Shown here one piece after another: positions 5,152-57,839 of a stretch of DNA of 58,147 nucleotides. Source of the DNA: an uncultured Thermodesulfovibrio sp. (GTDB taxonomy: Bacteria; Nitrospirota; Thermodesulfovibrionia; Thermodesulfovibrionales; JdFR-85); NCBI GenBank assembly GCA_964542175.1, contig CAZITN010000003.1, positions 4,249 to 62,395 on the forward strand, given 5' to 3'. A model generated the notes under the pieces. That model made no database searches. It saw nothing but the letters and a program-made list of their open reading frames with translations, and had not been told where the DNA came from. The translations under genes were made by a program, and so were the position numbers. How positions within the stretch are numbered: position 1 is the stretch's first letter; each line of letters begins with the position of its first letter.

Positions 5152-6324
5152 TCAGAATTCTGCCTTTATGCGTTGTATCTCTTTTGCGATCAGGGTTTCA
5201 GCAAGGTCGGGAACAGTCTCCCAGAGGATCTTTTCCACCTCCTGTCTCAAAGAGGATGAAAGGTCTTCCATCATCGACCTGATAGCGCCTTCTATTTTCT
5301 GGGGTAAATCTGCCTGGATCGCCTGTTCTATCCTTTCCGCGACATGGGATCGGATTGTCTCCTCAAGTAAATTACCGATTTCCAGTCCCGACAGGGCGCG
5401 TTTCACCTCTTCTGCCATCAGATCCTTTGCATCTGAACGAAGAGCCTCCGTATTGATCCCCGAAAGGACATCGGATATCTTCTTTTCAATGGTCTCTTTA
5501 ATCATGGACTCTATCTCAGCAGCTTCAGGGACCGAGATGGCCATTGACGGCTCGGGAGGTTCGCTTTCTGCAGGTGGAGTCTCCCTGGGACTTTCCGCTT
5601 CTTCGACTGGAGCCACTTCGGGCATTGCCTGTGGTGTCTCCTGTACCTCTTCCTCCACAGGTTCAATGAGTTCTATGGTCTCTTCTTCGGGTTTGTCTTC
5701 ACCGAATGAGAGTTCTTCTTCGAGATTCCATACATCCTCATCGGCTGATTCAAAGGGGATTTCTCCCTCTTCAGGTTTGATCTCCTCAGCCTCCGGAACA
5801 GACCCGGCTGTTGCTTCCATCTCCAAGGCCTCTGCTACTTCAAGGGGTTCAGGGACCTCTTCCTGGGCTCCTTCCCCTGTTCCTTCGATACCGGCCACTT
5901 CCGAAACCTCTACGGCCTCTTCGACCGCCTCAGCTCCGGTTTCACCGGATATCTCCTGCTCAGCAAAGATTGCATTCAGTTTACTGATCAGTTCCTGGGA
6001 CTCGAAGGGTTTTACGAGGTGGTCATCAGCATTTACTTCCCTGGCCAGATCTTCATCAATGGGTTCAAAGGCACCGGCAAGCAGAATAACAGGGATATGG
6101 CAGGTCTCCTCATCCTTTTTTACCCGCTCGCACAACTGGTACCCATTCAGAGAAGGCATCTCGATATCGGCTAGAATCACGTCAGGCCTGAACTCCTTGA
6201 CCATATTCCACGCCTCTTCCCCGTCTCCCGAGGCTTTTATTTCATAGTCCTCATCCGCAAGAATGAGTTCAACCACCTTCTGGATGGTTACACTGTCATC
6301 AGCCAGGAGTAATTTTTTGCTCAT
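5152..6324 (-). CDS. response regulator: receiver domain, long acidic linker and helical C-terminal domain of unknown function
   Basis: CheY-like receiver (LLLADDS, DVILADIEMP, HLVKPF). About 150 aa of E/P/A-rich linker. Start placed at ATG 6324 (MSKKLLL) with GGAGAGAGG upstream. Confidence 0.85.
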   Translation of the reverse strand: MSKKLLLADDSVTIQKVVELILADEDYEIKASGDGEEAWNMVKEFRPDVILADIEMPSLNGYQLCERVKKDEETCHIPVILLAGAFEPIDEDLAREVNADDHLVKPFESQELISKLNAIFAEQEISGETGAEAVEEAVEVSEVAGIEGTGEGAQEEVPEPLEVAEALEMEATAGSVPEAEEIKPEEGEIPFESADEDVWNLEEELSFGEDKPEEETIELIEPVEEEVQETPQAMPEVAPVEEAESPRETPPAESEPPEPSMAISVPEAAEIESMIKETIEKKISDVLSGINTEALRSDAKDLMAEEVKRALSGLEIGNLLEETIRSHVAERIEQAIQADLPQKIEGAIRSMMEDLSSSLRQEVEKILWETVPDLAETLIAKEIQRIKAEF

Positions 6325-6502
6325 ATGACACCTCTCTCCAGGGGACACCCCCTAAATTTTGGTTTTTGCTCCAGAAAAAACCTTCAGACAAATTTTATTG
6401 TTATCTGTCAAAAAAGTCAAGTTTTTTGATTGATTCAGCCATTGCATTATATGCTTAATGGGAATTTCTGTTGTATAATGAAATCATTGAGATGCCTATT
6501 TT

Positions 6503-7255
6503 ATGGACAAAAACGAGATTATAAGGATTTTCAGGGCAGTCCAGCGGGGAGAGGTCTCTCCTGAGGATGCATTCAAAAGGATAAGGGATCTTCCCTTTGA
6601 GATGCTGGACTCTTCCCATATAGACCATCACAGGGAGATCAGGCAGGGTATCCCCGAGGTGGTCCTTGCTGAGGGAAAGTCTGTCTCTGAAGTGAAGGAG
6701 ATATCGCAGAGGATTTATGAGAAAAGGGGAAAGGTGTTCATAACAAGGGCCTCTGAAGAAATGTACAGGGCTATCGGGATTGAGGGTGCCCGTTTTCATC
6801 CCCGTTCCCGTATCATAGCTGTCGGTGAATCCGGCAAAGGAGAGGGAAAGGTGCTGGTACTCTCTGCCGGGACTTCAGACCTGCCTGTTGCCGAGGAGGC
6901 GCTCCTTACAGCGAGGTTTCTGGGCAGCAGGGTCAAGGGGATTTTTGATGTTGGAGTTGCGGGGATACACAGGCTTTTTGCTTACAGGGCAGATATAACC
7001 GGTGCTGATGTAATTGTGGTTGTGGCAGGCATGGAAGGGGCCCTTCCCTCGGTCGTCGGCGGGCTTACCGATGCGGTCGTGATCGGCGTTCCCACATCCA
7101 CAGGTTACGGGGCGTCCCTTGGTGGTCTTACCGCCCTTTTTTCCATGCTCAATTCCTGTGTGCCGGGTATTGCTGTCATGAATATAGATAACGGATTCGG
7201 GGCCGGGTGCCTCGCCCACAGGATAAACATGCTCAGATCAGGCAGAAGGGGTTAG
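6503..7255 (+). CDS. larB: LarB-type (PurE-like) nickel-pincer cofactor biosynthesis carboxylase/hydrolase
   Basis: 250 aa. PurE/AIR-carboxylase-like C-terminal half (VLVLSAGTSDLPVAEEA, VVVAGMEGALPSVV) plus the N-terminal extension typical of LarB. Confidence 0.8.
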   Translation: MDKNEIIRIFRAVQRGEVSPEDAFKRIRDLPFEMLDSSHIDHHREIRQGIPEVVLAEGKSVSEVKEISQRIYEKRGKVFITRASEEMYRAIGIEGARFHPRSRIIAVGESGKGEGKVLVLSAGTSDLPVAEEALLTARFLGSRVKGIFDVGVAGIHRLFAYRADITGADVIVVVAGMEGALPSVVGGLTDAVVIGVPTSTGYGASLGGLTALFSMLNSCVPGIAVMNIDNGFGAGCLAHRINMLRSGRRG

Positions 7256-22346: not shown

Positions 22347-23885
22347 CTATTCCCATTCTATGGTGCTGGGAGGCTTTGAACTTATGTCATAGACCACCCG
22401 GTTTATACCCTTTACCTCGTTTATTATCCTGTTTGAAATCCTTGCAAGGGTCTTATCAGGGATCTTGGCCCAGTCTGCAGTCATCCCGTCAAGGCTGGTC
22501 ACAGCTCTTACAGCGATGGTGTATTCATAAGTTCGTTCATCACCCATCACACCGACGCTCCTTACCGGGAGCAGCACCGCAAAGGCCTGCCATATCTGCC
22601 TGTAAAGTCCGGCCTTCTTGATCTCTTCAAGGACGATCGCATCGGCTTCTCTCAGGAGTTCAAGTCTTTTCGGGGTTATCTCCCCGAGGCACCTGATGGC
22701 AAGGCCCGGTCCGGGGAACGGATGCCTCCAGCAGATCTCCTCCGGCAATCCCAGTTCCTCTCCGAGTTCCCGGACCTCGTCCTTGAAGAGTTCCCGGAGC
22801 GGCTCAATCAGTCTGAGATTCATTACATCAGGAAGTCCGCCTACATTATGGTGGGATTTTATGGTCGCAGAGGGTCCCTTGAAGGAGACGCTCTCTATTA
22901 CATCAGGGTAGAGAGTGCCCTGGGCAAGAAACTCGGCATCCTCGATCTTGGCCGCCTCTTCTTCAAAGACCTTTATGAACTCGTTGCCTATTATCTTTCT
23001 TTTTTTCTCCGGGTCAGTTACTCCGTTCAACAGGGAGAGGAATCTCTCCCTTGCATCAACGGTCACAAGCTGGATATGAAAGTGCCTCTGGAAGGTGTCC
23101 CGGACCTTCCTGTATTCACCCTTTCTTAGGAGTCCGTTGTCAACGAAGATACAGGTGAGCCTGTCACCTATCGCCCGGTGCACTATGAGTGCGACAACCG
23201 ATGAATCCACCCCACCGCTCAATGCACATATCACCCGCCCGTTACCTACGGTCCTGCGGATATCCTCGGTGGCCCATTCAATGAAGGATGACATATGCCA
23301 GACCGGACTGCAGCCGCATATATCAAGAACAAAGTTCTGGAGTATTCTCTTTCCGTCTTCGGTATGGACCACCTCAGGATGAAACTGGAGGGCATACATT
23401 TTCCTTTCGTGATCTGCCATTGCAGCAATGGGTGAGTTTTCCGTATGGGCAACAGGGTGAAAGCCCGGCGGGCATTTGTCGATCCTGTCTCCATGGCTCA
23501 TCCAGACGGTTGAACGGTCTGTCACCCCCCAGAGAAGGTCCCTGTCATCATCGATGATTATCTCAGCCCTGCCGTACTCCCTCCTTGCCGCCTTGCCCAC
23601 TTCACCGCCCAGGAGGTGGGCCATCAACTGCATCCCGTAACAGATTCCAAGGATGGGAATGCCCAGATCAAATATCCCTCTGTCAGGTATGGGAGCACCT
23701 TCATCAAAGGCGCTCGAGGGGCTTCCGGAGAGGATTATGCCCCTGGGGTTGAAATCACGGATCTTCTCTATGGATGCATTAAAGGGCAGGATTTCCGAAT
23801 ATACACGGCTCTCCCTCACCCTCCTTGCGATCAGCTGGGTGTACTGGGAACCAAAATCCAGAACGAGTATCTTTTCTCTTTCCAT
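22347..23885 (-). CDS. guaA: GMP synthase (glutamine-hydrolysing)
   Basis: GATase domain (ILGICYGMQ), ATP-PPase SGGVDSSV and the C-terminal STIEWE. Confidence 0.97.
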
Positions 23886-28843: not shown

Positions 28844-30601
28844 TCAGGAGTGTCGTCTCAAGATCTCCCTGTTATAGACGGCGATGACATCACCGCGCCT
28901 GAGCATCCCGACTACCTTTCTGGGGTTCTCCCGGGAGACTACGGGTATTTCGTCGATATCCATGGTGGCGAAGTGTCTCATGGCAGTGGTCAGGTTATCA
29001 TCCGGGTAGAGGACGAGTACATCCTCTGTGCAGAGTTCCCCCACTGTGACCACTTCCTTTATGTAGTCTTCAAAAAGGACCTTCCTGACATCCTGGAGTG
29101 AGATTATCCCTACCATCTCACCCCTGGAATCCACCACCGGATAGTAGAACCCCCCGCCTCCCTCAATAACAAGCTCCATGAACTCCTTGAGGTTCACCCT
29201 GTCACGGACTGTTGTGAAGTGCCTTCTCATAACATCATTCACCTTTATGGCACTCAGGAGGGTTACCTCCTTGCCGGCATGGATATTTAATCCCTTTCTG
29301 GCAAGCTCGTAGGTGTCTATGGACTCTCTGAAGAGCCTGTGGGCTACAAAGGTGCCTGTGGTTGTGGCAAACATCATGGGAAGGATGATCTTGTAGTTGC
29401 CTGTCAGTTCAAAGAGCAGAAACATTCCTGTAAGGGGTGCATGGGTTACGGCGGCAAGGAATGCCCCCACACCGACCATTGAGTATGCACCGGGAGAAGA
29501 TATGTATCCTGGCAAGAGGCTGTGAAGGATAGTTCCTACCGCCCCGCCTGTCATGGCACCGATAAAGAGGGCGGGTGCAAAGACACCTCCGGCTCCACCC
29601 GAACCTAGAGTAAAGGATGTAGCCACGATCTTTGCAAAGATCAGGAGAATCATGACTGAAAATACCATATTCCCCCGGAAGGCCTGCTCTATATATTCAT
29701 AGCCGTCACCTAATATCTGGGGAAAGACTATCCCGATGGAACCTACGGTCAAGGCCCCGATGAGGGGCTTCAGGTAAGGGTTGATATTGATCCTGTCAAA
29801 CCAGTCCTTTACCCTGTAAAAAATCCGGATGTAAATAACCGCCACGGGACCTATCACCGCTCCGAGGAGGAGATAGAAGGGGGTTTCAAAGAGATTGACT
29901 ATATCATACTGCGGGACAATAAATGCGGGATTGGAACCGTAATATATCCTCGAGACTACTGTTGCCATGCCTGAGGCTACAACTATCGCACCAAAGGAAG
30001 TAAGTTCGAAATTTCCGAGAAGGACGATCTCCGATGCAAACATCACCCCGGCAATGGGCGCATTGAAAGTGGCGGCTATACCGCCTGCAGCTCCGGCGGC
30101 TATAAGGAGCTTCATCCGGTTCCCGGAGACGTTGAAGAACTGCCCGATAAGGGAGCCGATCCCGCCTCCGATCTGGGCGATGGGGCCCTCGACACCGGCA
30201 GAACCGCCTGAACCGATCGTGATGGAAGGGGCGATGATCTTGAGAAGGATCGTTCTCAGGCGGATGATCCCATCCCTGATATTCACCTTCTCAAGAAATG
30301 AAGGAAAGCCGTAACCGTAAACTTCGCCTGGAAATCTGTAGGCGAGAGGGATAAGCAGGATCGCACCGGTAAGAGGAAGCAGGGGGGTGAGGAGCCGGAA
30401 GGGGAGGCCCTCATTGATTTTAAGGACTGTACCGCCCGATTCAAGGAAGAGTTCCTTGCAGAGCTCGAGGGTTGTCCTGAAGAGCATGTTGGCGCCGCCG
30501 CTCAGGGCACCAATAATGACGGCAAGTGCTATAAGCGACGTATGTTTCCCCAGATGGATAGAGGGAAGCTTTACCTTGAAATTTCTGATAGTTCCTGACA
30601 T
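28844..30601 (-). CDS. ClC-family voltage-gated chloride channel/antiporter with C-terminal CBS pair
   Basis: GSGGSAGVEGP selectivity motif, more than 10 TM helices and two CBS domains at the C-terminus. Confidence 0.92.
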   Translation of the reverse strand: MSGTIRNFKVKLPSIHLGKHTSLIALAVIIGALSGGANMLFRTTLELCKELFLESGGTVLKINEGLPFRLLTPLLPLTGAILLIPLAYRFPGEVYGYGFPSFLEKVNIRDGIIRLRTILLKIIAPSITIGSGGSAGVEGPIAQIGGGIGSLIGQFFNVSGNRMKLLIAAGAAGGIAATFNAPIAGVMFASEIVLLGNFELTSFGAIVVASGMATVVSRIYYGSNPAFIVPQYDIVNLFETPFYLLLGAVIGPVAVIYIRIFYRVKDWFDRININPYLKPLIGALTVGSIGIVFPQILGDGYEYIEQAFRGNMVFSVMILLIFAKIVATSFTLGSGGAGGVFAPALFIGAMTGGAVGTILHSLLPGYISSPGAYSMVGVGAFLAAVTHAPLTGMFLLFELTGNYKIILPMMFATTTGTFVAHRLFRESIDTYELARKGLNIHAGKEVTLLSAIKVNDVMRRHFTTVRDRVNLKEFMELVIEGGGGFYYPVVDSRGEMVGIISLQDVRKVLFEDYIKEVVTVGELCTEDVLVLYPDDNLTTAMRHFATMDIDEIPVVSRENPRKVVGMLRRGDVIAVYNREILRRHS

Positions 30602-45268: not shown

Positions 45269-46822
45269 ATGCTCCATAAAAAAATTCGAGTCTTGAACGC
45301 CATTGCAACAGTTCTTGTTCTGCTCCTTTTCACTTTCTTCCTGCCAGAGACGTGGGCTGAGGAGGAACCTGCCAGAGAGGTGCTGAGGATGATGCTGATC
45401 CCACTTGAATCCCCTTCTGAGATGTACAGGAAATTCCTGCCTGTTAAGCGTTACCTTCAGGACCGGTTGAATCGCGGTATATCGTTAAAAGTCGCCAGGA
45501 ACAGCTCTGATATATTGACCCTTTTTAAAAAAGACAAGATTGACGTTGCCTTTGTCTGTCCAACGCTCTACTGTGAAATAGCAGCAGAAACGGGTATTGA
45601 ACCTCTCGTGAAGTTGCAGATCAACGGGAGTGATGAGTACAGGAGTGTGCTTGTAGTGAGAGACGATGCAGATATCCGTAAAATTTCCGATCTTTATGAC
45701 ACTACAATGGTTTATGGCAGATACAGATGCCCCGGGTCTGGCCTCCTTCCTGACATAATGCTTGGCAGGATTGGAATGGAAAGGGACGACTTCTTTGATA
45801 TAGTAAGACTTGGATCTGATGAAAGTGCAATGCTGGCTGTAATGGCGAGGATGTTTGATGTAACCGGCGTCCCGGAAATGTCCGTAAGGCAGTATTTGGG
45901 CAGGGGCCTCAGAATTCTGAGATATTCCTATCCGATTCCTCAGTATCTTTTTGTTGCGAGGAAGGGCCTGGGAGACGGGTTGATTGCGGATTTAAGGAAG
46001 GCATTGCTGGATGTTAACGTGCTTCCTGGAAAAGAGGCTGTGTTAGGCAGGATAGAAGAGGGTATCTCCGGGTTCACTGAAGCAAAGGACAGCGATTACG
46101 ATATTGTAAGACTGCTGATGAGGAGCTCTGGTGAGGCAATCAGGTCGAGAAACGGCAGCAACGGAACCATTCTGCTAGTAGAGCCTGTAATATATGCCCC
46201 TGATATGTTCAGGAAAACAAAAAGGCTGAAGAATTGTCTCGAAAAGAGCCTGGAAAGAAAAATAGATATCTTGATTCCTCAAAACAACCAGGCATTCGTT
46301 GCAATGAAGCAGAAGATCAAAAACCTTGTTATCCTTCAGGAAAATTCCCTCTATAGAACAAAGAGGGCTCCGGGAGAGAGATTTGTCTCCAGATACGATT
46401 TGCTGCGTTATGAGAAGGGACTGGTGATTACACTGAAGAGCAGCAAGATTAACAGCCTGACCGACCTGAAGAACAGAAGTGTCGGTGTTATATCATTTGA
46501 TTCGGAAGGAGGGTATCTCTCGCAGGCGAGGCTTCTGGACCGCGAGGGGATACGTTTAAAGAAGGAACAGTTTTCTCTGTTTGGTACATATGAAAATGTC
46601 GTTATGGCGGTCTACAGAAAAGAGGTTGATGCCGGCTTCGTCAGCTCTGCTTCTTTTGAGGAGATTCAAAAGGATATTGATCTTGGAAAGATAAAAATCA
46701 TGGTAAGCACGCCTCCCCTTGAGGATTGGGTGTTCTCTGTAAAGGGGCTTTCCTCAGTGCAGTGGGGGATTATAAAAGACCAGGTGAACAGGTGTCATGA
46801 AGTTACTGGAAAACTTCAATAA
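45269..46822 (+). CDS. secreted protein with two tandem PhnD-like (type-2 periplasmic binding) modules
   Basis: Signal peptide. Module 1 covers about aa 35-290 (LRMMLIPLESP...YRSVLVVRDD...) and module 2 about aa 295-510 (GVISFDSEGGYL...DAGFVSS...). No ABC permease or ATPase nearby. Confidence 0.78.
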   Translation: MLHKKIRVLNAIATVLVLLLFTFFLPETWAEEEPAREVLRMMLIPLESPSEMYRKFLPVKRYLQDRLNRGISLKVARNSSDILTLFKKDKIDVAFVCPTLYCEIAAETGIEPLVKLQINGSDEYRSVLVVRDDADIRKISDLYDTTMVYGRYRCPGSGLLPDIMLGRIGMERDDFFDIVRLGSDESAMLAVMARMFDVTGVPEMSVRQYLGRGLRILRYSYPIPQYLFVARKGLGDGLIADLRKALLDVNVLPGKEAVLGRIEEGISGFTEAKDSDYDIVRLLMRSSGEAIRSRNGSNGTILLVEPVIYAPDMFRKTKRLKNCLEKSLERKIDILIPQNNQAFVAMKQKIKNLVILQENSLYRTKRAPGERFVSRYDLLRYEKGLVITLKSSKINSLTDLKNRSVGVISFDSEGGYLSQARLLDREGIRLKKEQFSLFGTYENVVMAVYRKEVDAGFVSSASFEEIQKDIDLGKIKIMVSTPPLEDWVFSVKGLSSVQWGIIKDQVNRCHEVTGKLQ

Positions 46823-50079: not shown

Positions 50080-51312
50080 TTGAAACAGAAAATCAGGGAA
50101 GGCATTGTTTTGTTGCTTATTGTTGCAGGATTCATGGCAACTCTGGTTCTGATATTCAAAATAAGGAGATATCTGAGCATAGATCCTGATACACTTTCCG
50201 ATGAGGATCTGGCGGCTATAAAACAATCGATCAAGACAACGGTAATAGTTTCAGGATTCATAATCGGAGGCCTGATGGGCGCGATTGTGCAGAGAAGCAA
50301 GTTCTGTATTGCAGCCGCATGTCACAGTATTGTTACAATACGCGAGTTGACCCAGTCACGGGCGTATGCGATGGCACTTTTTGTTGCAATCCTTGGGACC
50401 CAGGTCCTTTACAGGATGGGTGATGTTGATATCACGAGAAGTATATATGTTTCTTCACCATTCACCTGGTTGAGTTATGTGGTCGGTGGGTTCATATTCG
50501 GTGTCGGTATAGTCTATGCCGGAGGGTGTGCGAGCAGGATCCTCGTGAGGTCCTCAGAGGGCAACCTTGGTGGACTGGTCAGTGTTCTGGCTTTCATCTT
50601 TTCATCAGGTGCAACCTTGTGGGGTATTACTGCCCATCTGAGAGTGGATGTTTTCAACAGTGTGACCGCGGAAATGCAGACCCAGTATATTCCCGACATC
50701 TTAGGTGGTACTGTGCCTTACTATATCGTGATAGCCGTTGTGGAGGTTGTATTGCTTGTGTTCATGCTTACTGCTTCAAGGGATTCTGAATGGTGGAACT
50801 GGCGCTGGCCTGTTGCAGGGATAGGCATAGGACTTACCATAGTTTTTGCCTGGTGGATAAACGGGATAGCTTACAAAGTCCTGCCCTACCTGGATTCTTT
50901 CTCTTATACAGGTCCTGATGACCCGACGTTGCTTCAGTTCTGGCGGCCGAAGAGTCTGACTTTTGCACTTGCCGATGCCCAGACCTTCAGGTACATTATT
51001 CTCTGGACGGGAGAATCGATAAATTTTGCCATAGCATCAGTTCTTGGAGTTATAGCCGGAGCGTTGGTGGCTGCCGTCATAAGCGGGAGTTTCACATGGG
51101 TTGCGCCGCCTCTTCAGCAGTTCAAATATAATCTTGTAGGCGGACTATTGATGGGCTTTGGTGCAGTTCTTGCCCTCGGTTGTAATATTGGACAGGGACT
51201 GAGTGGATTTTCTACACTGTCTATTGGGAGTATTCTGACGATGTCATTCATTTTCCTGGGAGCTATTTCCGGGGCCAAGTACATGAACTGGCGGCTGATG
51301 AGAGAACTGTGA
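50080..51312 (+). CDS. YeeE/YedE-family sulfur-compound (thiosulfate) transporter
   Basis: 410 aa and polytopic. Two halves with conserved Cys contexts (QRSKFCIAA, YAGGCASR, LALGCNIGQG). TTG start behind GGAGGTGAG. Confidence 0.88.
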   Translation: MKQKIREGIVLLLIVAGFMATLVLIFKIRRYLSIDPDTLSDEDLAAIKQSIKTTVIVSGFIIGGLMGAIVQRSKFCIAAACHSIVTIRELTQSRAYAMALFVAILGTQVLYRMGDVDITRSIYVSSPFTWLSYVVGGFIFGVGIVYAGGCASRILVRSSEGNLGGLVSVLAFIFSSGATLWGITAHLRVDVFNSVTAEMQTQYIPDILGGTVPYYIVIAVVEVVLLVFMLTASRDSEWWNWRWPVAGIGIGLTIVFAWWINGIAYKVLPYLDSFSYTGPDDPTLLQFWRPKSLTFALADAQTFRYIILWTGESINFAIASVLGVIAGALVAAVISGSFTWVAPPLQQFKYNLVGGLLMGFGAVLALGCNIGQGLSGFSTLSIGSILTMSFIFLGAISGAKYMNWRLMREL

Positions 51313-51319
51313 AAATATT

Positions 51320-51871
51320 ATGATGAGGCCGGGTATTTATAGGAAAATAACCAGAGGTTTGCCTGCCCTTTTTGTCATGTTAATATTATCAGGCTGTGCG
51401 TTTAACGGAAAGGCAGAGAGGGCTGCGTCTACCCTCTCTTCTGCTTACTGTAGAGATCCTGTTGTTATCAACAAGATCAATGGTGACTATGACGAGGTAT
51501 GGGAAGACTTGAAAATGGCTCTGAATGACAGAGGGCTGGTTATTTCAAGCGTTTCCCATGTTGGTGAAATGCTTGAACGTACAGGCAAGGCACTGGGAAG
51601 GACAAGAAAGATATATGAGAGGGCGAAGGTAATGGAGTTTTGCAGTGCCGTTGTATCAAGGGACATGCTGGAGGTTAACCCCCATTATATCTCATTCTGC
51701 CCTTATCAAATAATGGTTTATTCCCTCCCCGGCAAGCCTGATGAAATTTATATTTCCTACAGGCATCTTATCTGGAAGGATGATGATCGTGACAAGGTTC
51801 TGGATGAGGTGGAAGAGCTTCTGAAGGATATAATAAACGATGTGCGGGAACTGCACAAGGAATATGAGTGA
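51320..51871 (+). CDS. DUF302-domain lipoprotein
   Basis: Lipobox LSGC. DUF302-like core (EFCSAVVSRDMLEVNPHYISFCPYQIMVY). Confidence 0.7.
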   Translation: MMRPGIYRKITRGLPALFVMLILSGCAFNGKAERAASTLSSAYCRDPVVINKINGDYDEVWEDLKMALNDRGLVISSVSHVGEMLERTGKALGRTRKIYERAKVMEFCSAVVSRDMLEVNPHYISFCPYQIMVYSLPGKPDEIYISYRHLIWKDDDRDKVLDEVEELLKDIINDVRELHKEYE

Positions 51872-51900
51872 ACATATCAACAGGAGAAGGAGGAGAAGTC

Positions 51901-52137
51901 ATGTCTGAAACAAGCGTAGCCCAGAGGATTGATTTGAGTGGCCAGAACTGTCCCATGCCGGTTCTTAAGACAAAGAAACATCTGGATGCAATGCAGTCAG
52001 GAGAGGTGCTTGAGGTTATTACAACCGATCCTGGCTCAAAGTCCGACATCCCTGCACTCATCAAGAGACTCGGAAGTGAACTGATAGAGTTGAAGGAAAA
52101 CGGCGGGGAATTTACATTCCTGATCAAAAAGGGCTGA
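51901..52137 (+). CDS. TusA/YeeD-family sulfurtransferase
   Basis: CPMP active-site motif (LSGQNCPMPVLKTKK). About 78 aa from ATG 51901 behind GGAGGAG. Confidence 0.9.
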   Translation: MSETSVAQRIDLSGQNCPMPVLKTKKHLDAMQSGEVLEVITTDPGSKSDIPALIKRLGSELIELKENGGEFTFLIKKG

Positions 52138-52214: not shown

Positions 52215-53405
52215 TCAACGGTTTGCAGTATGCAGTACGGCTGCCACAAGGCATAATATTCCTGATATGACAAGCATCTGCGATGTACCCATGTATTCTG
52301 CAAGATAACCAAGCGTGAAACTCCCGATCGGGACCATCCCGAGAAACAGAAAGGAAAAGACACTCATCACCCTCCCTCTGAGTTCATCGGGCACCTTTAA
52401 TTGAATGAAACTGTTTGAGGTAGCAAGGAGGCTTACAAGGGAAAAACCGGCAACAGTGAGAAAAAAGATTCCCAGAAGGAAGTTTTTTGTAACTGCAAAT
52501 GAAATCAGGGCAAAGGGGAATATAAGTGATGCAATTATGATGTATCTTCTCTTGTTCTTTATATCTCCCTTTATGGCGAGGGTGAGTGCGGCAAGCAACG
52601 CACCTGTGCCTCCGCCTCCCATGAGAAGACCGAGTCCCCGGGCGCCTTTATGAAAGACATCTTCGGCAAAGTAGGGCAGAAAGTGATTGTAGGGCATCCC
52701 GAATATGCTGAAGATCATTATGGTAAAGAGCAGGCGTCTTATCACCCTGTTGTGCCGGATGAATCCCAGCCCCTCTCTGAAATCAGAAAGAATATCCTTT
52801 GACTTTCGCATCCTCTCGGTTATGTCCATCTTCCGCAGGACAACCACAACAGGAATGAAACTCAATGCGTTTATGAGAAAGCAGTATGGGAGGCCGATTG
52901 AAGATATGAGCAGACCTGCAATTACGGGACCCAGCATCCTTGAGCCGTGAAAGGAGGCAGAGTGCAGAGCGATTGCATTCAGAAGATACCCCCGGCCTAC
53001 CATCTCGATCAGGAATGATTGCCTGGCCGGGATGTCTATTGAGTTTATGCTTCCCATCATGAAGGCCACGAGAAGAACCTGCCACACGGAGATTGTATGG
53101 CTCAGTGTTAGAATACCTAGTAGGAGGGGAGGAAAGATGCTCAGAAACTGTGTTAGGATGAGTATGGACTGTTTGGGAAAACGGTCTGCCAGGATGCCAC
53201 CGAAGAGTGTGAACAGGAGGATGGGGAGTGATAATACCGCACCCGTGTAACCAAGGTAAAGGGGTGAATGCGTAAGGTCGTAGACCAGCCAGCTCTGCGC
53301 TGCCTGATGCATCCAGGTGCCTGTAAGCGAGATCACCTGGGCTGTCAGAAAGTAGCGGTAGTTTCTGACTGTCAGTGCAGCAAAGGGTGTCTTTCTCTCT
53401 TCCAA
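52215..53405 (-). CDS. MFS transporter (EntS/MFS_3-like exporter)
   Basis: 396 aa with 12 predicted TM helices and the N-terminal pattern RNYRYFLTAQVISLTGTWM. TTG start with AGGAG 8 nt upstream. Confidence 0.87.
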   Translation of the reverse strand: MEERKTPFAALTVRNYRYFLTAQVISLTGTWMHQAAQSWLVYDLTHSPLYLGYTGAVLSLPILLFTLFGGILADRFPKQSILILTQFLSIFPPLLLGILTLSHTISVWQVLLVAFMMGSINSIDIPARQSFLIEMVGRGYLLNAIALHSASFHGSRMLGPVIAGLLISSIGLPYCFLINALSFIPVVVVLRKMDITERMRKSKDILSDFREGLGFIRHNRVIRRLLFTIMIFSIFGMPYNHFLPYFAEDVFHKGARGLGLLMGGGGTGALLAALTLAIKGDIKNKRRYIIIASLIFPFALISFAVTKNFLLGIFFLTVAGFSLVSLLATSNSFIQLKVPDELRGRVMSVFSFLFLGMVPIGSFTLGYLAEYMGTSQMLVISGILCLVAAVLHTANR

Positions 53406-53428: not shown

Positions 53429-53456
53429 TTGGACAGAAACAAAATTATAGTATAAT
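53429..53456 (+). promoter_or_regulatory. sigma70 promoter positioned for a leaderless rSAM transcript
   Basis: TTGGAC (53429-34), a 16-nt spacer, TATAAT (53451-56), then 6 nt and ATG 53463. No Shine-Dalgarno sequence. Confidence 0.45.
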
Positions 53457-53462
53457 CAAAGT

Positions 53463-55049
53463 ATGAAAGATGCAGAAAGATATCCTGGGGGAAAGCTTAC
53501 TGTCACGGCAAAAGTCCTCCGTTCTCTCGGGCATGATATTGGTGAGAGCATTGTGGAAGGCCCTGAGGGATTGCTGAATCTCCTTGCGGGAATATTTGAC
53601 CCGGAGGGAGAATATGGCTACATCCCGGATCTTGCCCTTCTTGAGTTGAAAGTCAGAGAGGTTGAGAAAACAGACTTGCCCGATTTCGATGAGTGTAATG
53701 GATACTGGATAAATCCGTCACTTAACGTAATAAGGACAGGCTGGAGAGGACTTACGGGATTTTTCAGGGAAGGGGAGGATGTCGTGCCTGCTCCTGGAGA
53801 GTGTCTGGTCCTGATGTGGAAGGACCGGAGGGGTGGGATTCACATCGAAGAGCAGAGGAATGACCTGATTCTTGCCCTGAAGATTGCCGCAGAGAACCTT
53901 GATCTGAGGAGACTCTCTGAAGATACGGGCAGGGGTGTTCCGTCTTTAAGGGGACTCCTGTACAGTGCGGAGGAATCAGGAATTCTTAAACGTCCTACAT
54001 CAAGGGTCAGACGCAACTATGACCGTATTGATTCGAATATTTTTCCTGACAACAAGTTCCTCGCAGCCGAGACCTTCACTCTCCAGTGGCATATCACACA
54101 GGCCTGTGACCTTCATTGCAAGCACTGCTACGACAGGTCGAACCGGGAATACCTGACCTTTGAGAAGGCCCTTTACGTGCTTGATCAGTTCTATGAATTC
54201 TGTATAGAAAAAGGAGTTTCCGGCCAGGTCTCCTTCTCCGGCGGGAACCCTTTCCTCCATTCTTCATTCTTCAGGATCTATGAAGAGGCGGTAAAGAGGG
54301 GGTTCGTTGTAGCAGTTCTGGGTAATCCGGTAACTGAAGAGCGGTTAAGGGAACTTCTCTCAATCAGAAAACCCTCCTTTTACCAGGTGAGCCTTGAAGG
54401 GCTGAAGGACCGGAACGACTGGGTGAGAGGCGAGGGACATTTTGAGAGGACTCTCGATTTTCTCTCCCTTCTGGGAAGGTTTGGGATTTACAGGATGGTG
54501 ATGCTAACGCTGACGGAATCAAATTTCAGAGACGTGATTCCCCTAGCGGAACAGCTCAGGAGGCTTGCAGATACCTTTACCTTCAACAGGCTCTCAATGG
54601 TGGGAGAAGGAGAGAACCTGAGATTGCCTCCTCAAGGTGAATTCAGAATCTTTCTGGAAGAATATCTTGCAGCCTGCAATGACAATGTATCCCTCAGTCT
54701 GAAGGATAATTTTTTCAACATCCTGAGAGTCGGAAAAGGTGAGCCCCCTATAGGTGGATGCACCGGATACGGTTGTGGCGCAGCCTTCAACTTTGTCTCC
54801 GTACTTCCCGACGGCGAGGTCCATGCCTGCAGGAAGTTTCCTTCACTGATAGGGAATATTTACGAAGACAGTCTGCTTGAGATTTACGACTCACCCATTG
54901 CAGATAGATACCGGGAGGGGCCGTCGGAATGCAGGGACTGCAGCCTCCGTCTGGTCTGCAGGGGCTGTCTGGCAGTGGCCTACAGTCATAAACTCGATCC
55001 TTTCAAGGATAAAGACCCCTATTGTTTTATCCAGGACCCAGACCGGTAA
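53463..55049 (+). CDS. radical SAM enzyme with C-terminal SPASM-type domain and a roughly 205-aa unknown N-terminal domain
   Basis: CDLHCKHCY (CxxxCxxC) at about aa 215. C-terminal Cys cluster GGCTGYGCGA..HACRKF..CRDCSLRLVCRGC. The N-terminal third has no motif I recognise. Confidence 0.88.
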   Translation: MKDAERYPGGKLTVTAKVLRSLGHDIGESIVEGPEGLLNLLAGIFDPEGEYGYIPDLALLELKVREVEKTDLPDFDECNGYWINPSLNVIRTGWRGLTGFFREGEDVVPAPGECLVLMWKDRRGGIHIEEQRNDLILALKIAAENLDLRRLSEDTGRGVPSLRGLLYSAEESGILKRPTSRVRRNYDRIDSNIFPDNKFLAAETFTLQWHITQACDLHCKHCYDRSNREYLTFEKALYVLDQFYEFCIEKGVSGQVSFSGGNPFLHSSFFRIYEEAVKRGFVVAVLGNPVTEERLRELLSIRKPSFYQVSLEGLKDRNDWVRGEGHFERTLDFLSLLGRFGIYRMVMLTLTESNFRDVIPLAEQLRRLADTFTFNRLSMVGEGENLRLPPQGEFRIFLEEYLAACNDNVSLSLKDNFFNILRVGKGEPPIGGCTGYGCGAAFNFVSVLPDGEVHACRKFPSLIGNIYEDSLLEIYDSPIADRYREGPSECRDCSLRLVCRGCLAVAYSHKLDPFKDKDPYCFIQDPDR

Positions 55050-55459
55050 TGGACAGCACCTTTATGAAAATAGGGAAGCTTGCAGAAGAGGCGGGTGTAA
55101 GCATAGATACCATCAGGTATTACGAGAAAAGGGGAATCCTCCCGCCTCCTGTAAGATCTGCCTCCGGATACAGACTCTATACTGAAGAGACAGTGGATAT
55201 GCTCAGGTTCGTAAGAAAGGCAAAGGGTCTTGGGTTCAGACTGGATGAGATCCGGCAGCTTGCAAGGCTCAGGTACAGCCCCTGCGACGACAGGTGTGTA
55301 AGTGTCAGAAAGATTGCTGAAGAAAAGATGAAAGAGGTTTCCGAAAGGATCAATGATCTCCTTGAGCTCCAGAAGATGCTCGACAGTTTCATTGATTCAT
55401 GCAGGAGAAACAGGACCCTCAGTAAATGTCCCTTCCTTGAAGAACTCGGAAAGGACTAA
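55049..55459 (+). CDS. merR: MerR-family Hg(II)-type transcriptional regulator
   Basis: HTH IGKLAEEAGVSIDTIRYYEKRGIL. Cys pattern SPCDDRC...DSC-x8-CP mirrors MerR Cys82/117/126. The ATG overlaps the rSAM stop (TAATG). An alternative start is at 55064. Confidence 0.85.
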   Translation: MDSTFMKIGKLAEEAGVSIDTIRYYEKRGILPPPVRSASGYRLYTEETVDMLRFVRKAKGLGFRLDEIRQLARLRYSPCDDRCVSVRKIAEEKMKEVSERINDLLELQKMLDSFIDSCRRNRTLSKCPFLEELGKD

Positions 55460-55496: not shown

Positions 55497-55528
55497 TTGA
55501 CTCTTGAGTATACTCCAGGGTTTATAAT
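55497..55528 (+). promoter_or_regulatory. MerR-type promoter/operator (long spacer with dyad)
   Basis: TTGACT (55497-502), a 20-nt spacer containing the dyad CTTGAGTATACTCCAG (55503-18, 14 of 16 positions symmetric), then TATAAT (55523-28). Confidence 0.72.
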
Positions 55529-55547: not shown

Positions 55548-56072
55548 GTGAAGAGGTTGTCTGTAATAATAGCTGTATTCTTCTGTTTTGTCTCAAGTTC
55601 GGTTCTCCTTTTCGCCGGAGAGAAGGATATTTTTCTCATCCATCTGAAGACGGCACTGAAAAAGGACGATGCCCAGATATGCGTGGCCTACAACATGATC
55701 TGGGCTGCCCTTGAAGAGGGTTTTCAGGTAAAGGTGCTTGTGGATGCCAGTGCAATTGATACCTTCAAGATCGGGTGGCTGAGCAAGAAGGATGATATTG
55801 AGGACTATAGGATCCCGGACAATCTGAGAGAGGCCCTTTCTGTTCAGTTCAGCAAACCCCTGGAGAAGATCCCTGAGACCTATGGTGATTTGCTGAGGAT
55901 GCTTCACGACCTGGGAGCAGAGTTCTATGTGAACACAGGATATCTCATAGTCTCAAAGTCAGGAACACCGGAGGCCCCCCTTGATAGGATTTCTGTAAAG
56001 TTCTTCAAGCCTGTGAGTCTGAGAGAGATGGTAAGGTTGAGAAAAGAAGCAAAGTACTACATGGCCTATTAG
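55548..56072 (+). CDS. secreted hypothetical protein, possible DsrE/DsrF-like fold
   Basis: GTG start behind GGGAGG and a signal peptide. A beta-alpha-beta pattern (IFLIHLKT..., VKVLVDASAIDTF) resembles the 40516 protein. There is one Cys in the mature part. Confidence 0.6.
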   Translation: MKRLSVIIAVFFCFVSSSVLLFAGEKDIFLIHLKTALKKDDAQICVAYNMIWAALEEGFQVKVLVDASAIDTFKIGWLSKKDDIEDYRIPDNLREALSVQFSKPLEKIPETYGDLLRMLHDLGAEFYVNTGYLIVSKSGTPEAPLDRISVKFFKPVSLREMVRLRKEAKYYMAY

Positions 56073-56084
56073 GGGAGGATTTGT

Positions 56085-56420
56085 ATGTCTAAAACCAAAT
56101 ACACAGGGCTTGGAAGCATAATCGCCTCGTTTCTTGCAGCCTCGTGCTGCGTGGGACCTGCAATCTTTGTGATCTTTGGCACATCGGCAGGTTTTTTCAG
56201 CAAACTCACCTTCCTGGATAAATACCGCCCCTATCTCTTAGGAGCGGCCTTCCTTATGCTTGGCTATTCCTTTGTTAATCTCTACATCAGGAAACCATCC
56301 TGCGACTGTGCTGAAGACATAAGAAACAGAAAGATTGCCAAGGGGATATTCTGGGTGGGCCTTGTGGCGGTTGTCTTTTCGCTCACCTTCAGGAAAATAC
56401 TGCTCTGGCTTTACAGTTAG
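56085..56420 (+). CDS. merT: mercuric ion transporter MerT
   Basis: Three TM helices, CCVGP in TM1, LDKYRPYLLGAA and a second Cys pair (SCDC) in the TM2-TM3 loop. Collinear with Tn501 MerT. Confidence 0.88.
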   Translation: MSKTKYTGLGSIIASFLAASCCVGPAIFVIFGTSAGFFSKLTFLDKYRPYLLGAAFLMLGYSFVNLYIRKPSCDCAEDIRNRKIAKGIFWVGLVAVVFSLTFRKILLWLYS

Positions 56421-56432
56421 GATCCATGAACA

Positions 56433-57839
56433 ATGGAATATGAACTCATAATCATTGGTGCCGGTGCTGCGGGGTTTGCCGCAGCCTTCAAGGCAGAGGA
56501 GCTTGGTGTAAAAACCCTGATGATAAACGACAGCACCCATCTGCCCCTCGGTGGCACATGTGTGAATGTCGGCTGTATCCCCTCCAAGATACTGCTTCAT
56601 CAGGCTGGTCTTTACTACCAGAGTCTGAAGAGCCACTTTAGTGCCCTTTCCCTGTCGGGCAGCATAGATTTCCTGGAGGCTCTCAAAGAGACCCGCGAGA
56701 TGGTGTCAGAGTTTCAGGAAGGCAACTATAGGGATAACCTGAAGGGGCTTCAATACATCCGTTTAATAGAAGGAAGAGGAAGGCTTCTTGATGCAAACAC
56801 TGTTGAGACCGGTAAGGAGAGATTCAAGGGGAAATATATCCTCATTTCAACAGGGGCTTCCACATTCATCCCGCCAGTAAGGGGGATCAGGGATGTTGAC
56901 TTTCTCACCAACCGGACAATCTTCAGCCTTGAAGAAAGACCCCGGTCTATTGTCATACTTGGTGGAGGACCTGAGGCGGTGGAGTTTGCACAGATATTTC
57001 ACCGTTTCGGGATAAAAACAAGTCTTATACAGCGCTCCGACAGGATACTTACAAAATTTGAAGGCACCCTTGCCGGAAGACTCCAGGCAATCCTTGAAGA
57101 AGAGGGAATAGAGATTCATACCGGCACAAGGCTTCTTGAGGTAAGCAGGAACAACGGCCACGTGGAGGTGAGGTTCAATAAGGCAGGTGAAGACACCATG
57201 ACGGTAAGGGCTGAAAAACTCCTTGTGGCAACGGGGCTCAGGGGAAATACAAATGGACTTGGCCTTCCAGATGCGGGTGTTGAGACAATGGGGATGGGCT
57301 TTGTGAGGACCAACGATTATATGCAAAGCAGCCAGCCTCACATTTATGCTGCAGGTGACGTAGCAGGCACCATCGCCCTTGAGACCGTGGCGGCAAGAGA
57401 GGGAAGGGTTGCAGTGGAGAATATGTTTGAAGGTCGCAAAAGTGTGATTGAATACGAGATTGTGCCACGGGCAGTATTTACTGATCCGGAACTTGCCTCA
57501 GTGGGTACAACTGAGGAGGAGTACAGCAGGAAGTACGGAAGGTGTCTCTGTAGCAGCCTTGAGCTGAAGCACCTCGAACGGGCGGCCCTTGAGAGGAGGA
57601 CCGATGGATTGATTAACATGGTTATTCATCCTGATACCAGAGTTGTCTTGGGGGTTCATATGGTTGGCGCCAGGGCCTCTGAGGTGATCACTGCTGCCAC
57701 CTATGCTGTCAAGAACCGTATGAGCATCTATCAGATACGTGAAACAGTGCACATCTTCCCCACCATGGGTGAGGCCCTGAAAAAGGTGGCCCAGAGTTTT
57801 GACAGGGATCCCGGTAAGATGCCATGCTGTATAGAGTGA
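56433..57839 (+). CDS. merA: mercuric reductase (core MerA without NmerA domain)
   Basis: GGTCVNVGCIPSK redox disulfide, FAD/NAD folds and the C-terminal vicinal Cys pair in AQSFDRDPGKMPCCIE, as in MerA. Confidence 0.88.
   Translation: MEYELIIIGAGAAGFAAAFKAEELGVKTLMINDSTHLPLGGTCVNVGCIPSKILLHQAGLYYQSLKSHFSALSLSGSIDFLEALKETREMVSEFQEGNYRDNLKGLQYIRLIEGRGRLLDANTVETGKERFKGKYILISTGASTFIPPVRGIRDVDFLTNRTIFSLEERPRSIVILGGGPEAVEFAQIFHRFGIKTSLIQRSDRILTKFEGTLAGRLQAILEEEGIEIHTGTRLLEVSRNNGHVEVRFNKAGEDTMTVRAEKLLVATGLRGNTNGLGLPDAGVETMGMGFVRTNDYMQSSQPHIYAAGDVAGTIALETVAAREGRVAVENMFEGRKSVIEYEIVPRAVFTDPELASVGTTEEEYSRKYGRCLCSSLELKHLERAALERRTDGLINMVIHPDTRVVLGVHMVGARASEVITAATYAVKNRMSIYQIRETVHIFPTMGEALKKVAQSFDRDPGKMPCCIE

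Follow-up and report, generated by a model that had tools for sequence, protein, structure and literature searches.

The closest described counterparts of the locus analyzed here are the SbtM/SbtA systems of Geobacter and Desulfobacterota (NCBIfam models TIGR04082 and TIGR04081; Lewis et al., 2021, as summarized in the Bandarian perspective PMC9204691), in which the radical S-adenosylmethionine (SAM) enzyme SbtM removes 4 Da from a Gly-Cys/Sec-Gly motif (Sec, selenocysteine) of a precursor peptide. In PMC9204691, hydrogen abstraction at the Cys beta-carbon is described, the thio- or seleno-oxazole product absorbs near 304 nm, the purified enzyme has an Fe/S content sufficient for about three clusters, formation of the thio(seleno)oxazole is demonstrated for the Geobacter enzyme only, and acceptance of a short synthetic peptide is reported. 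In a second group of systems, an MNIO enzyme acts together with a DUF2063 partner, "PME1" (structure 3DEE), to install 5-thiooxazoles in copper-binding peptides, a predicted RRE being present in PME1 proteins (PMC12668002, PMC12538549). Here we describe an sbtM gene from an uncultured Thermodesulfovibrio sp. (GenBank assembly GCA_964542175.1, contig CAZITN010000003.1, positions 4,249 to 62,395; this stretch of 58,147 nucleotides (nt) is referred to below as the window), which overlaps a merR gene immediately upstream of mer structural genes. On balance, the evidence makes it probable that this is a genuine, maintained sbtM whose substrate is an SbtA-type peptide encoded elsewhere and not a mer protein, and that sbtM and merR form a bicistron separate from the mer structural unit, in an arrangement that is recent and confined to one lineage.

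The identity of the enzyme is settled by its match to TIGR04082, an equivalog model defined as "thio(seleno)oxazole modification radical SAM maturase SbtM": the window protein scores 632.1 bits (cutoff 350), with residues 31-522 aligned to positions 22-516 of the 516-position profile, and the runner-up family (ACGX rSAM, 167 bits) falls under its own cutoff. An earlier reading of this DNA made from its letters alone (the sequence-only reading) had described a three-part protein of 528 amino acids (aa), with an N-terminal region of 205 aa, a radical SAM core (CDLHCKHCY) and a SPASM tail, had listed SbtM among the known SPASM maturases and had proposed an hmmscan comparison; the open reading frame (ORF) and the Pfam matches bear out the description, and the profile score establishes which maturase it is. 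The gene and its product are divided as follows.

53463-55049, + strand: sbtM, 528 aa from an ATG start, radical SAM/SPASM maturase (TIGR04082 match, ORF list)
53463-54077, + strand: SbtM N-terminal domain (N-domain), aa 1-205, presumed leader-peptide-binding module, DUF2063/PME1-like with an RRE according to its predicted fold
54078-54752, + strand: radical SAM core, aa 206-430, with CX3CX2C at 54105-54128 and Pfam PF04055 at residues 211-358
54753-55028, + strand: SPASM domain, aa 431-522 (Pfam PF13186, residues 438-493; TIGR04085), with the Cys ligands of two auxiliary clusters

The three Cys residues of the radical SAM motif (Cys215, Cys219 and Cys222) and those of the SPASM tail (433, 438, 456, 490, 493, 499, 502 and 521) all occupy invariant or near-invariant columns of a 38-sequence alignment (A1), in which every family-invariant residue (100 or more) is kept in the window protein, including eight in the N-domain (L57, E61, N84, L137, L139, K140, E144 and R184). 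The family is large, and its members are named in databases either "selenobiotic family peptide radical SAM maturase" or SbtM. A full-length AlphaFold2 model (predicted local distance difference test, pLDDT, 86) has the RRE-bearing SPASM maturases CteB and SuiB as its nearest structures, followed by SkfB and anSME. Judged by these features, the window protein is an ordinary full-length member of a characterized family, found in an atypical genomic setting.

The most obvious peculiarity of this setting is the lack of a precursor gene. In approximately 30 related loci of Desulfobacterota and other Nitrospirota, encoding enzymes with 43-59% identity to the window SbtM, SbtA copies adjoin sbtM (33 copies with 22 distinct leaders). 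These peptides are 70-150 aa long, start with M..KELKKLLAGxGxAGLL, sometimes followed by a lipobox-like Cys, have a signal-peptide-like N-terminus of their own and carry two to five GSG(U/C)G motifs in Lys/Glu-rich spacers; two copies checked against TIGR04081 scored 41 and 47 bits, both above the cutoff of 30.5, and Pfam PF27804 marks truncated sbtA gene calls. Six-frame searches with two local hidden Markov models (HMMs), with TGA read through, yielded no SbtA in the window, in L019 (the same contig, extending 7 kb past the window) or in the related loci L001, L002 and L022, with a best score of 4.3 bits; at the window locus they cover 53 kb upstream and 10 kb downstream of sbtM. The GSG(C/U)G and leader motifs, sought in all six frames of the window with TGA as Sec or Cys, appear only as out-of-frame noise inside other genes. 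An sbtA gene inside the window was rejected on the basis of both the motif and HMM searches, which confirms the earlier statement that no short precursor-like ORF flanks sbtM. Since sbtA is not beside sbtM in this lineage, we infer that this SbtM acts on an SbtA-type peptide whose gene lies elsewhere in the genome. Of the substrates suggested by the sequence-only reading, an unlinked or Sec-containing peptide is the closest to this evidence (SbtA is a multi-Sec peptide that is not in the 65 kb examined), whereas the accompanying idea of its export by the neighboring major facilitator superfamily (MFS) protein is weakened by the fab-rnc synteny described below and by the signal-peptide-like N-terminus that SbtA peptides themselves possess.

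Other sbtM loci without sbtA also exist, namely L012, L043 and L044. The latter two (L043 at 5583-6689) encode 368-aa SbtM-like proteins that have no N-terminal domain and no nearby sbtA; in L012, sbtM is preceded by an ORF that resembles, by eye, a SAM hydroxide adenosyltransferase, and is followed by an MFS gene. Canonical sbtA-sbtM loci repeatedly adjoin an HFCD-type flavoprotein or Peptidase_MA_2 gene (L026 7006-7623, L023 7752-8714, L024 9627-10682), whose products could be tailoring or processing enzymes.

The two ends of the gene define its relation to merR, and they comprise the following elements.

53429-53456, + strand: putative sbtM promoter, TTGGAC at 53429-53434, a 16-nt spacer and TATAAT at 53451-53456
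55047-55051, + strand: TAATG overlap of the sbtM stop (TAA, 55047-55049) and the merR start (ATG, 55049-55051)

No start earlier than ATG 53463 is possible because of an in-frame TAG at 53448-53450, and this ATG is the sole possible start upstream of residue 31; it is also required by the family-conserved N-terminus (a Y-P motif at residues 7-8), and tblastn alignments of SbtM to two relatives (L003 and L009) begin at residues 5-6. As stated in the sequence-only reading, TATAAT ends 6 nt ahead of the ATG, with no Shine-Dalgarno sequence in the intervening bases (caaagt). A consensus promoter scan made no call at this candidate promoter, the -35 element TTGGAC being weak. The string TAGTATAAT, followed by 5-6 nt and ATG, is kept in L022 (88% identity) and in L001 (60% identity), and this conserved geometry makes a leaderless sbtM mRNA a reasonable inference. 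Approximately 19 of the 50 ORFs in the window have no Shine-Dalgarno sequence (a crude count), and in several a -10-like box immediately precedes the ATG, suggesting that leaderless starts may be common in the source organism. Examples are the ORFs 22347-23885 (-), 28844-30601 (-) and 45269-46822 (+), each of which lacks a Shine-Dalgarno sequence and has a -10-like hexamer 5-7 nt ahead of its ATG. At the 3' end, the TAATG overlap reported earlier is present as described and is also called in L019 and L022; a second in-frame merR ATG lies at 55064, and gene callers differ as to which of the two they use. Given the overlapping stop and start codons, synthesis of the merR product would ride on sbtM expression.

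Downstream of sbtM, the locus continues with the following features.

55049-55459, + strand: merR-family metal-sensing regulator, 136 aa from ATG 55049; TIGR02051, 121.7 bits (cutoff 150.85)
55497-55528, + strand: MerR-type promoter/operator, TTGACT at 55497-55502, a 20-nt spacer with a dyad, and TATAAT at 55523-55528
55548-56072, + strand: 174-aa signal-peptide protein between the mer promoter and merT, matching no family in Pfam and NCBIfam searches
56085-56420, + strand: merT-like mercuric ion transporter; NF010314, 63.6 bits (cutoff 150); Pfam MerT
56433-57839, + strand: merA, mercuric reductase, short form with a C-terminal CC; TIGR02053, 479.5 bits (cutoff 454.45)

The assignment as a mer operon draws on a merA match above its cutoff, on MerT and MerR matches that are below their own cutoffs and on the dyad promoter with its 20-nt spacer. 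For the merR product, the CadR and ZntR models score about equally to the MerR model TIGR02051; by comparison with Tn501 MerR, its Cys residues fall at the positions of the three Hg ligands of MerR. The operator dyad (cTTGAGTA/TACTCcAG, 55503-55518), the only exact dyad match in the window, was read by eye; an inverted-repeat tool run on the two intergenic regions gave no result, as the arms of the dyad fall short of its seed length. The promoter closely resembles that of E. coli zntA. Next comes a GGGAGG Shine-Dalgarno element, and then the GTG from which the 174-aa ORF starts. L002 and L022 keep this promoter, with the two imperfect positions of the dyad swapped (CTGGAGTATACTCAAG). As this conserved promoter is located 3' of merR, the structural genes have a metal-responsive promoter of their own, with sbtM-merR as a separate upstream bicistron, and the 174-aa ORF, merT and merA would all be driven from 55497-55528. 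Thus, the proposal of the sequence-only reading that sbtM heads the merR transcription unit stands for merR itself but not for the structural genes. No terminator-like site was found between sbtM-merR and the mer structural unit, so that read-through is possible. A candidate second MerR operator before sbtM was dismissed, being only an 11-of-14 resemblance that overlaps the -10 box and lies within chance expectation.

The linkage of sbtM to mer genes is narrow. Only this lineage, comprising the window's own contigs, L002 (97% identity) and L022 (88%), shows the order sbtM-merR(overlap)-merT-merA. In the approximately 30 loci with 43-59% identity, no merR, merT or merA lies within 8 kb of sbtM, unrelated genes lie downstream of sbtM in L045 (59% identity over the C-terminal half), the contig of L001 ends inside sbtM, and a metagenome scan for additional close-clade members returned only relatives of 40-59% identity. 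A conserved association of such enzymes with merR, which the sequence-only reading had raised, is therefore not borne out: the linkage is limited to sequences at least 88% identical, and a radical SAM enzyme is not a conserved mer component. The arrangement appears to be recent and confined to this lineage, and the three mer-linked sequences, belonging to one narrow lineage, represent a single evolutionary event. Base composition gives no sign of an island.

Within this lineage, sbtM is evidently maintained. Its ORF is uninterrupted in each of the seven contigs where it occurs (7/7), and the ratio of nonsynonymous to synonymous substitution rates (dN/dS) against L022 is 0.36 overall (N-domain, 0.38; core, 0.22); the values, below 0.4 in both domains, indicate purifying selection. 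Synonymous divergence (dS) from L022 (74-1657) is uneven, both along sbtM (0.44 in the N-domain, 0.07 in the core) and across the locus (merR 0.37, merT 0.13, merA 0.26), which suggests recombination among close lineages.

The N-domain, which the sequence-only reading had described as a region without any recognized motif, indeed gives nothing significant in a Pfam search with its 205 aa (the top hit, an unrelated DUF, has an E-value of 0.016), but the known TIGR04082 model includes it as an integral part; since the match of the window protein spans nearly the whole profile, this seemingly unknown domain is typical of the SbtM family. Modeled alone with AlphaFold2 (pLDDT 84), it consists of three helices followed by a three-strand sheet with three helices (aa 88-172). 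The best Foldseek match of the predicted structure is 3DEE, NGO1945 (E-value 9.7e-6, probability 1.0, template modeling (TM) score 0.52 over 160 columns), and the second is TglHI chain A (E-value 1e-3). The sequence-only reading had suggested a fold prediction with an RRE/PqqD-like fold in mind; the nearest match of the predicted fold is DUF2063/PME1, with its predicted RRE. At the sequence level the relationship is faint: Pfam DUF2063 (PF09836) matches 2 of 18 SbtM-family N-domains, and weakly (E-value 0.02), with no match in the window protein itself; a profile search of PDB sequences with the SbtM N-domain retrieved nothing, and no paper linking DUF2063 to radical SAM came up in a literature search. 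The N-domain is also the fastest-evolving part of the protein, with 75% identity within the lineage vs. 96% for the core, and approximately 25% identity to canonical SbtMs vs. 47% for the whole protein. The modeled resemblance to PME1 suggests a substrate-recognition module common to the radical SAM and MNIO routes.

Under the reading that we favor, SbtM would apply SAM-derived radical chemistry, in two rounds, to the beta-carbon of Cys or Sec in Gly-(Cys/Sec)-Gly (chemistry of the family rather than of this particular protein), building a 5-thio- or 5-seleno-oxazole from the Cys or Sec and the preceding carbonyl. The predicted DUF2063/RRE-like N-domain would bind the conserved SbtA leader, and SbtA itself would be an exported Lys/Glu-rich peptide. 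The enzyme would be expressed from a short, probably leaderless sbtM-merR bicistron, and the mer structural genes from their own MerR-type promoter just downstream of merR. Several considerations weigh against this account. The search across the window and L019 revealed no substrate gene for this SbtM; its catalytic activity is assigned from the family; leaderless transcription and translational coupling of sbtM-merR are deduced from the nucleotide sequence; and the N-domain, as the most diverged part of the protein, may recognize a different leader.

Two further groups of neighboring genes bear on the alternatives. The first comprises two apparent selenoprotein genes just past merA, which suggest that the host may use selenocysteine. 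Approximately 0.27-0.58 kb past the right end of the window (L019 14957-15266), a gene that contains an in-frame TGA encodes a MerP-like periplasmic HMA protein with the metal motif GMTCQLU; its matches are Pfam HMA (3e-12) and the NCBIfam models 'UxxU metal-binding (seleno)protein' (73 bits) and MerP (69.5 bits), both NCBIfam matches being below cutoff, and the hairpin that follows its UGA is no more stable than shuffled sequence. It is followed at L019 15274-15600 by a thioredoxin-like ORF with a TGA read through, residues 7-96 of which match NF049942, 'DF family (seleno)protein' (55.9 bits, cutoff 70). No tRNA-Sec or sel genes are present in the window.

On the other side of sbtM, the second group begins with the MFS gene. 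Both neighbors named in the sequence-only reading, the divergent MFS gene and merR, are confirmed (followed downstream by the 174-aa ORF, merT and merA).

52215-53405, - strand: divergent MFS_3/EntS-like transporter, 80% identical to the MFS protein encoded divergently from sbtM in L001

The L001 MFS gene adjoins fabG-acpP-fabF-rnc, and orthologues with 59-60% identity occur in the same synteny in other Nitrospirota, with a dapB or GntR gene in the place of sbtM. This conserved synteny without sbtM makes the MFS gene look like a resident beside which sbtM landed; it is probably a gene conserved in Nitrospirota, which weakens the proposal that it serves as a dedicated peptide exporter. In the window, the MFS gene has lost its usual rnc-fab neighbors. 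Its sole promoter-like match (53477-53506, -) falls within the initial 45 nt of the sbtM ORF, so that the 57-bp intergenic region may hold overlapping divergent promoters. Just upstream of the MFS gene, 50080-52137 encodes a YeeE/TsuA-like transporter, a DUF302 lipoprotein-like ORF and a TusA/YedF-like sulfurtransferase, all below family cutoffs, which would form a sulfur- or selenium-trafficking trio.

Among the alternative explanations, the least improbable is a functional mercury link. Here, the product of SbtM would be a thiol- or selenol-oxazole peptide with the capacity to bind Hg(II) or other soft metals, and the enzyme a mer accessory, a radical SAM counterpart of the MNIO-PME1 bufferins and captophorins. 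The merR overlap is kept in three distinct sequences (100, 97 and 88% identity), the locus encodes the MerP-like CxxU protein, and a canonical sbtA-sbtM locus (L024) adjoins CDF efflux and ChrB genes. Furthermore, Cu binding and a connection with metal stress are documented for 5-thiooxazole peptides (PMC12668002, PMC12538549), and SbtA is built like their precursors, with a signal-like N-terminus, repeated X-Cys/Sec-Gly motifs and Lys/Glu-rich spacers. By analogy with captophorins, where the same heterocycle binds copper, and in a locus rich in thiol and selenol metal ligands, a role of SbtM in soft-metal handling is plausible. Nevertheless, mer genes are missing within 8 kb in all other sbtM loci (0 of approximately 30), the position of the operator 3' of merR leaves sbtM without visible MerR control, the locus holds no precursor gene, and the three mer-linked sequences amount to one evolutionary event, for which reason we regard the soft-metal tie as rather unlikely. 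Its fullest version, in which the oxazole peptide is a mercury- or soft-metal-binding mer accessory and the anaerobic counterpart of captophorins, the N-domain is a true PME1 homologue and two unrelated oxidases recruited the same leader-binding module, is likewise an improbable combination. A still less probable explanation is that the adjacency is accidental and sbtM an orphan left without its precursor by a rearrangement, either decaying or kept for an unrelated reason. The missing sbtA, the rearrangement-prone position (an MFS gene without its usual neighbors), the uneven dS with its hint of recombination, the few other loci lacking sbtA and the restriction of the mer link to a narrow lineage all agree with it; the dN/dS values, the retention of all invariant residues and cluster Cys, the intact ORF in every contig and a promoter-ATG geometry conserved down to 60% identity do not, and a decaying orphan is hard to reconcile with purifying selection.

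The remaining explanation, also proposed in the sequence-only reading, is that SbtM has its substrate in the neighboring operon: the 174-aa protein, the Cys pairs of MerT or, in addition, the Sec-containing MerP-like protein. Apart from the adjacency, the lack of a nearby precursor and the acceptance of a short synthetic peptide reported in PMC9204691, nothing favors it. The 174-aa gene is not in L002 or L022, which keep sbtM-merR-merT-merA and have approximately 190 nt of non-coding sequence instead. Every frame of the mer genes is free of G-(C/U)-G and GSG(C/U)G motifs, the Cys and Sec motifs being CC and CDC in MerT, CQLU in the MerP-like protein and CC in MerA, and the SbtA leader is in none of these proteins. 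Conversion of the metal-ligand Cys of MerT would more likely harm than assist its known mechanism. As individual candidates, the 174-aa protein (missing from both closest relatives, with no motif and no family match) as well as MerT, MerA and the MerP-like protein (neither motif nor leader) were rejected, and we consider modification of any mer protein highly improbable.

Overall, a comparison with the known systems places the window enzyme firmly among SbtMs and its gene neighborhood apart from theirs. With the SbtM/SbtA systems it shares the full-length architecture, a score above the equivalog cutoff, the invariant residues and perhaps a host that uses Sec; it differs in the absence of sbtA over the span searched, in the position of sbtM between an MFS gene and an overlapping merR, and in the low identity of its N-domain. 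CteB, SuiB, SkfB and anSME, the best structural matches to the whole model, likewise combine a radical SAM core with a SPASM domain carrying auxiliary clusters, and anSME also oxidizes a Cys beta-carbon; however, their products are thioethers, Lys-Trp crosslinks and formylglycine, their N-domains have approximately 100 aa vs. approximately 200 aa in SbtM, and identity to them is 16-21%. Compared with canonical mer operons (Tn501 merR/merTPAD and the merR-first operon of Bacillus RC607), the locus has the same MerR-family regulator, MerT and MerA, and the over-long 20-nt spacer with a central dyad, but merR follows and overlaps a radical SAM gene, the operator comes after merR rather than before it or in a divergent position, and the MerP-like gene lies 0.6 kb past merA and apparently encodes a CxxU selenoprotein. 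The MNIO (DUF692) and PME1 (DUF2063) systems (bufferins, captophorins; 3DEE; TglHI) provide a further parallel: the heterocycle is identical, it is formed on the Cys of repeated X-Cys-Gly in exported peptides, and the PME1 partner is the nearest fold to the predicted SbtM N-domain. In contrast, the catalyst there is a non-haem iron oxidase and here a radical SAM/SPASM enzyme, which therefore needs no oxygen, and the leader-binding module, a separate subunit there, is fused to the enzyme in SbtM, with marginal sequence similarity to DUF2063. Two leads from these comparisons are worth keeping, the coupling to mer and the PME1-like N-domain. The latter, if real, would help in precursor prediction and engineering. 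The former, with sbtM joined to merR beside Sec-containing metal-binding proteins, offers a concrete and testable hint that SbtM peptides handle soft metals, as chemically identical 5-thiooxazole peptides made by iron enzymes handle copper.

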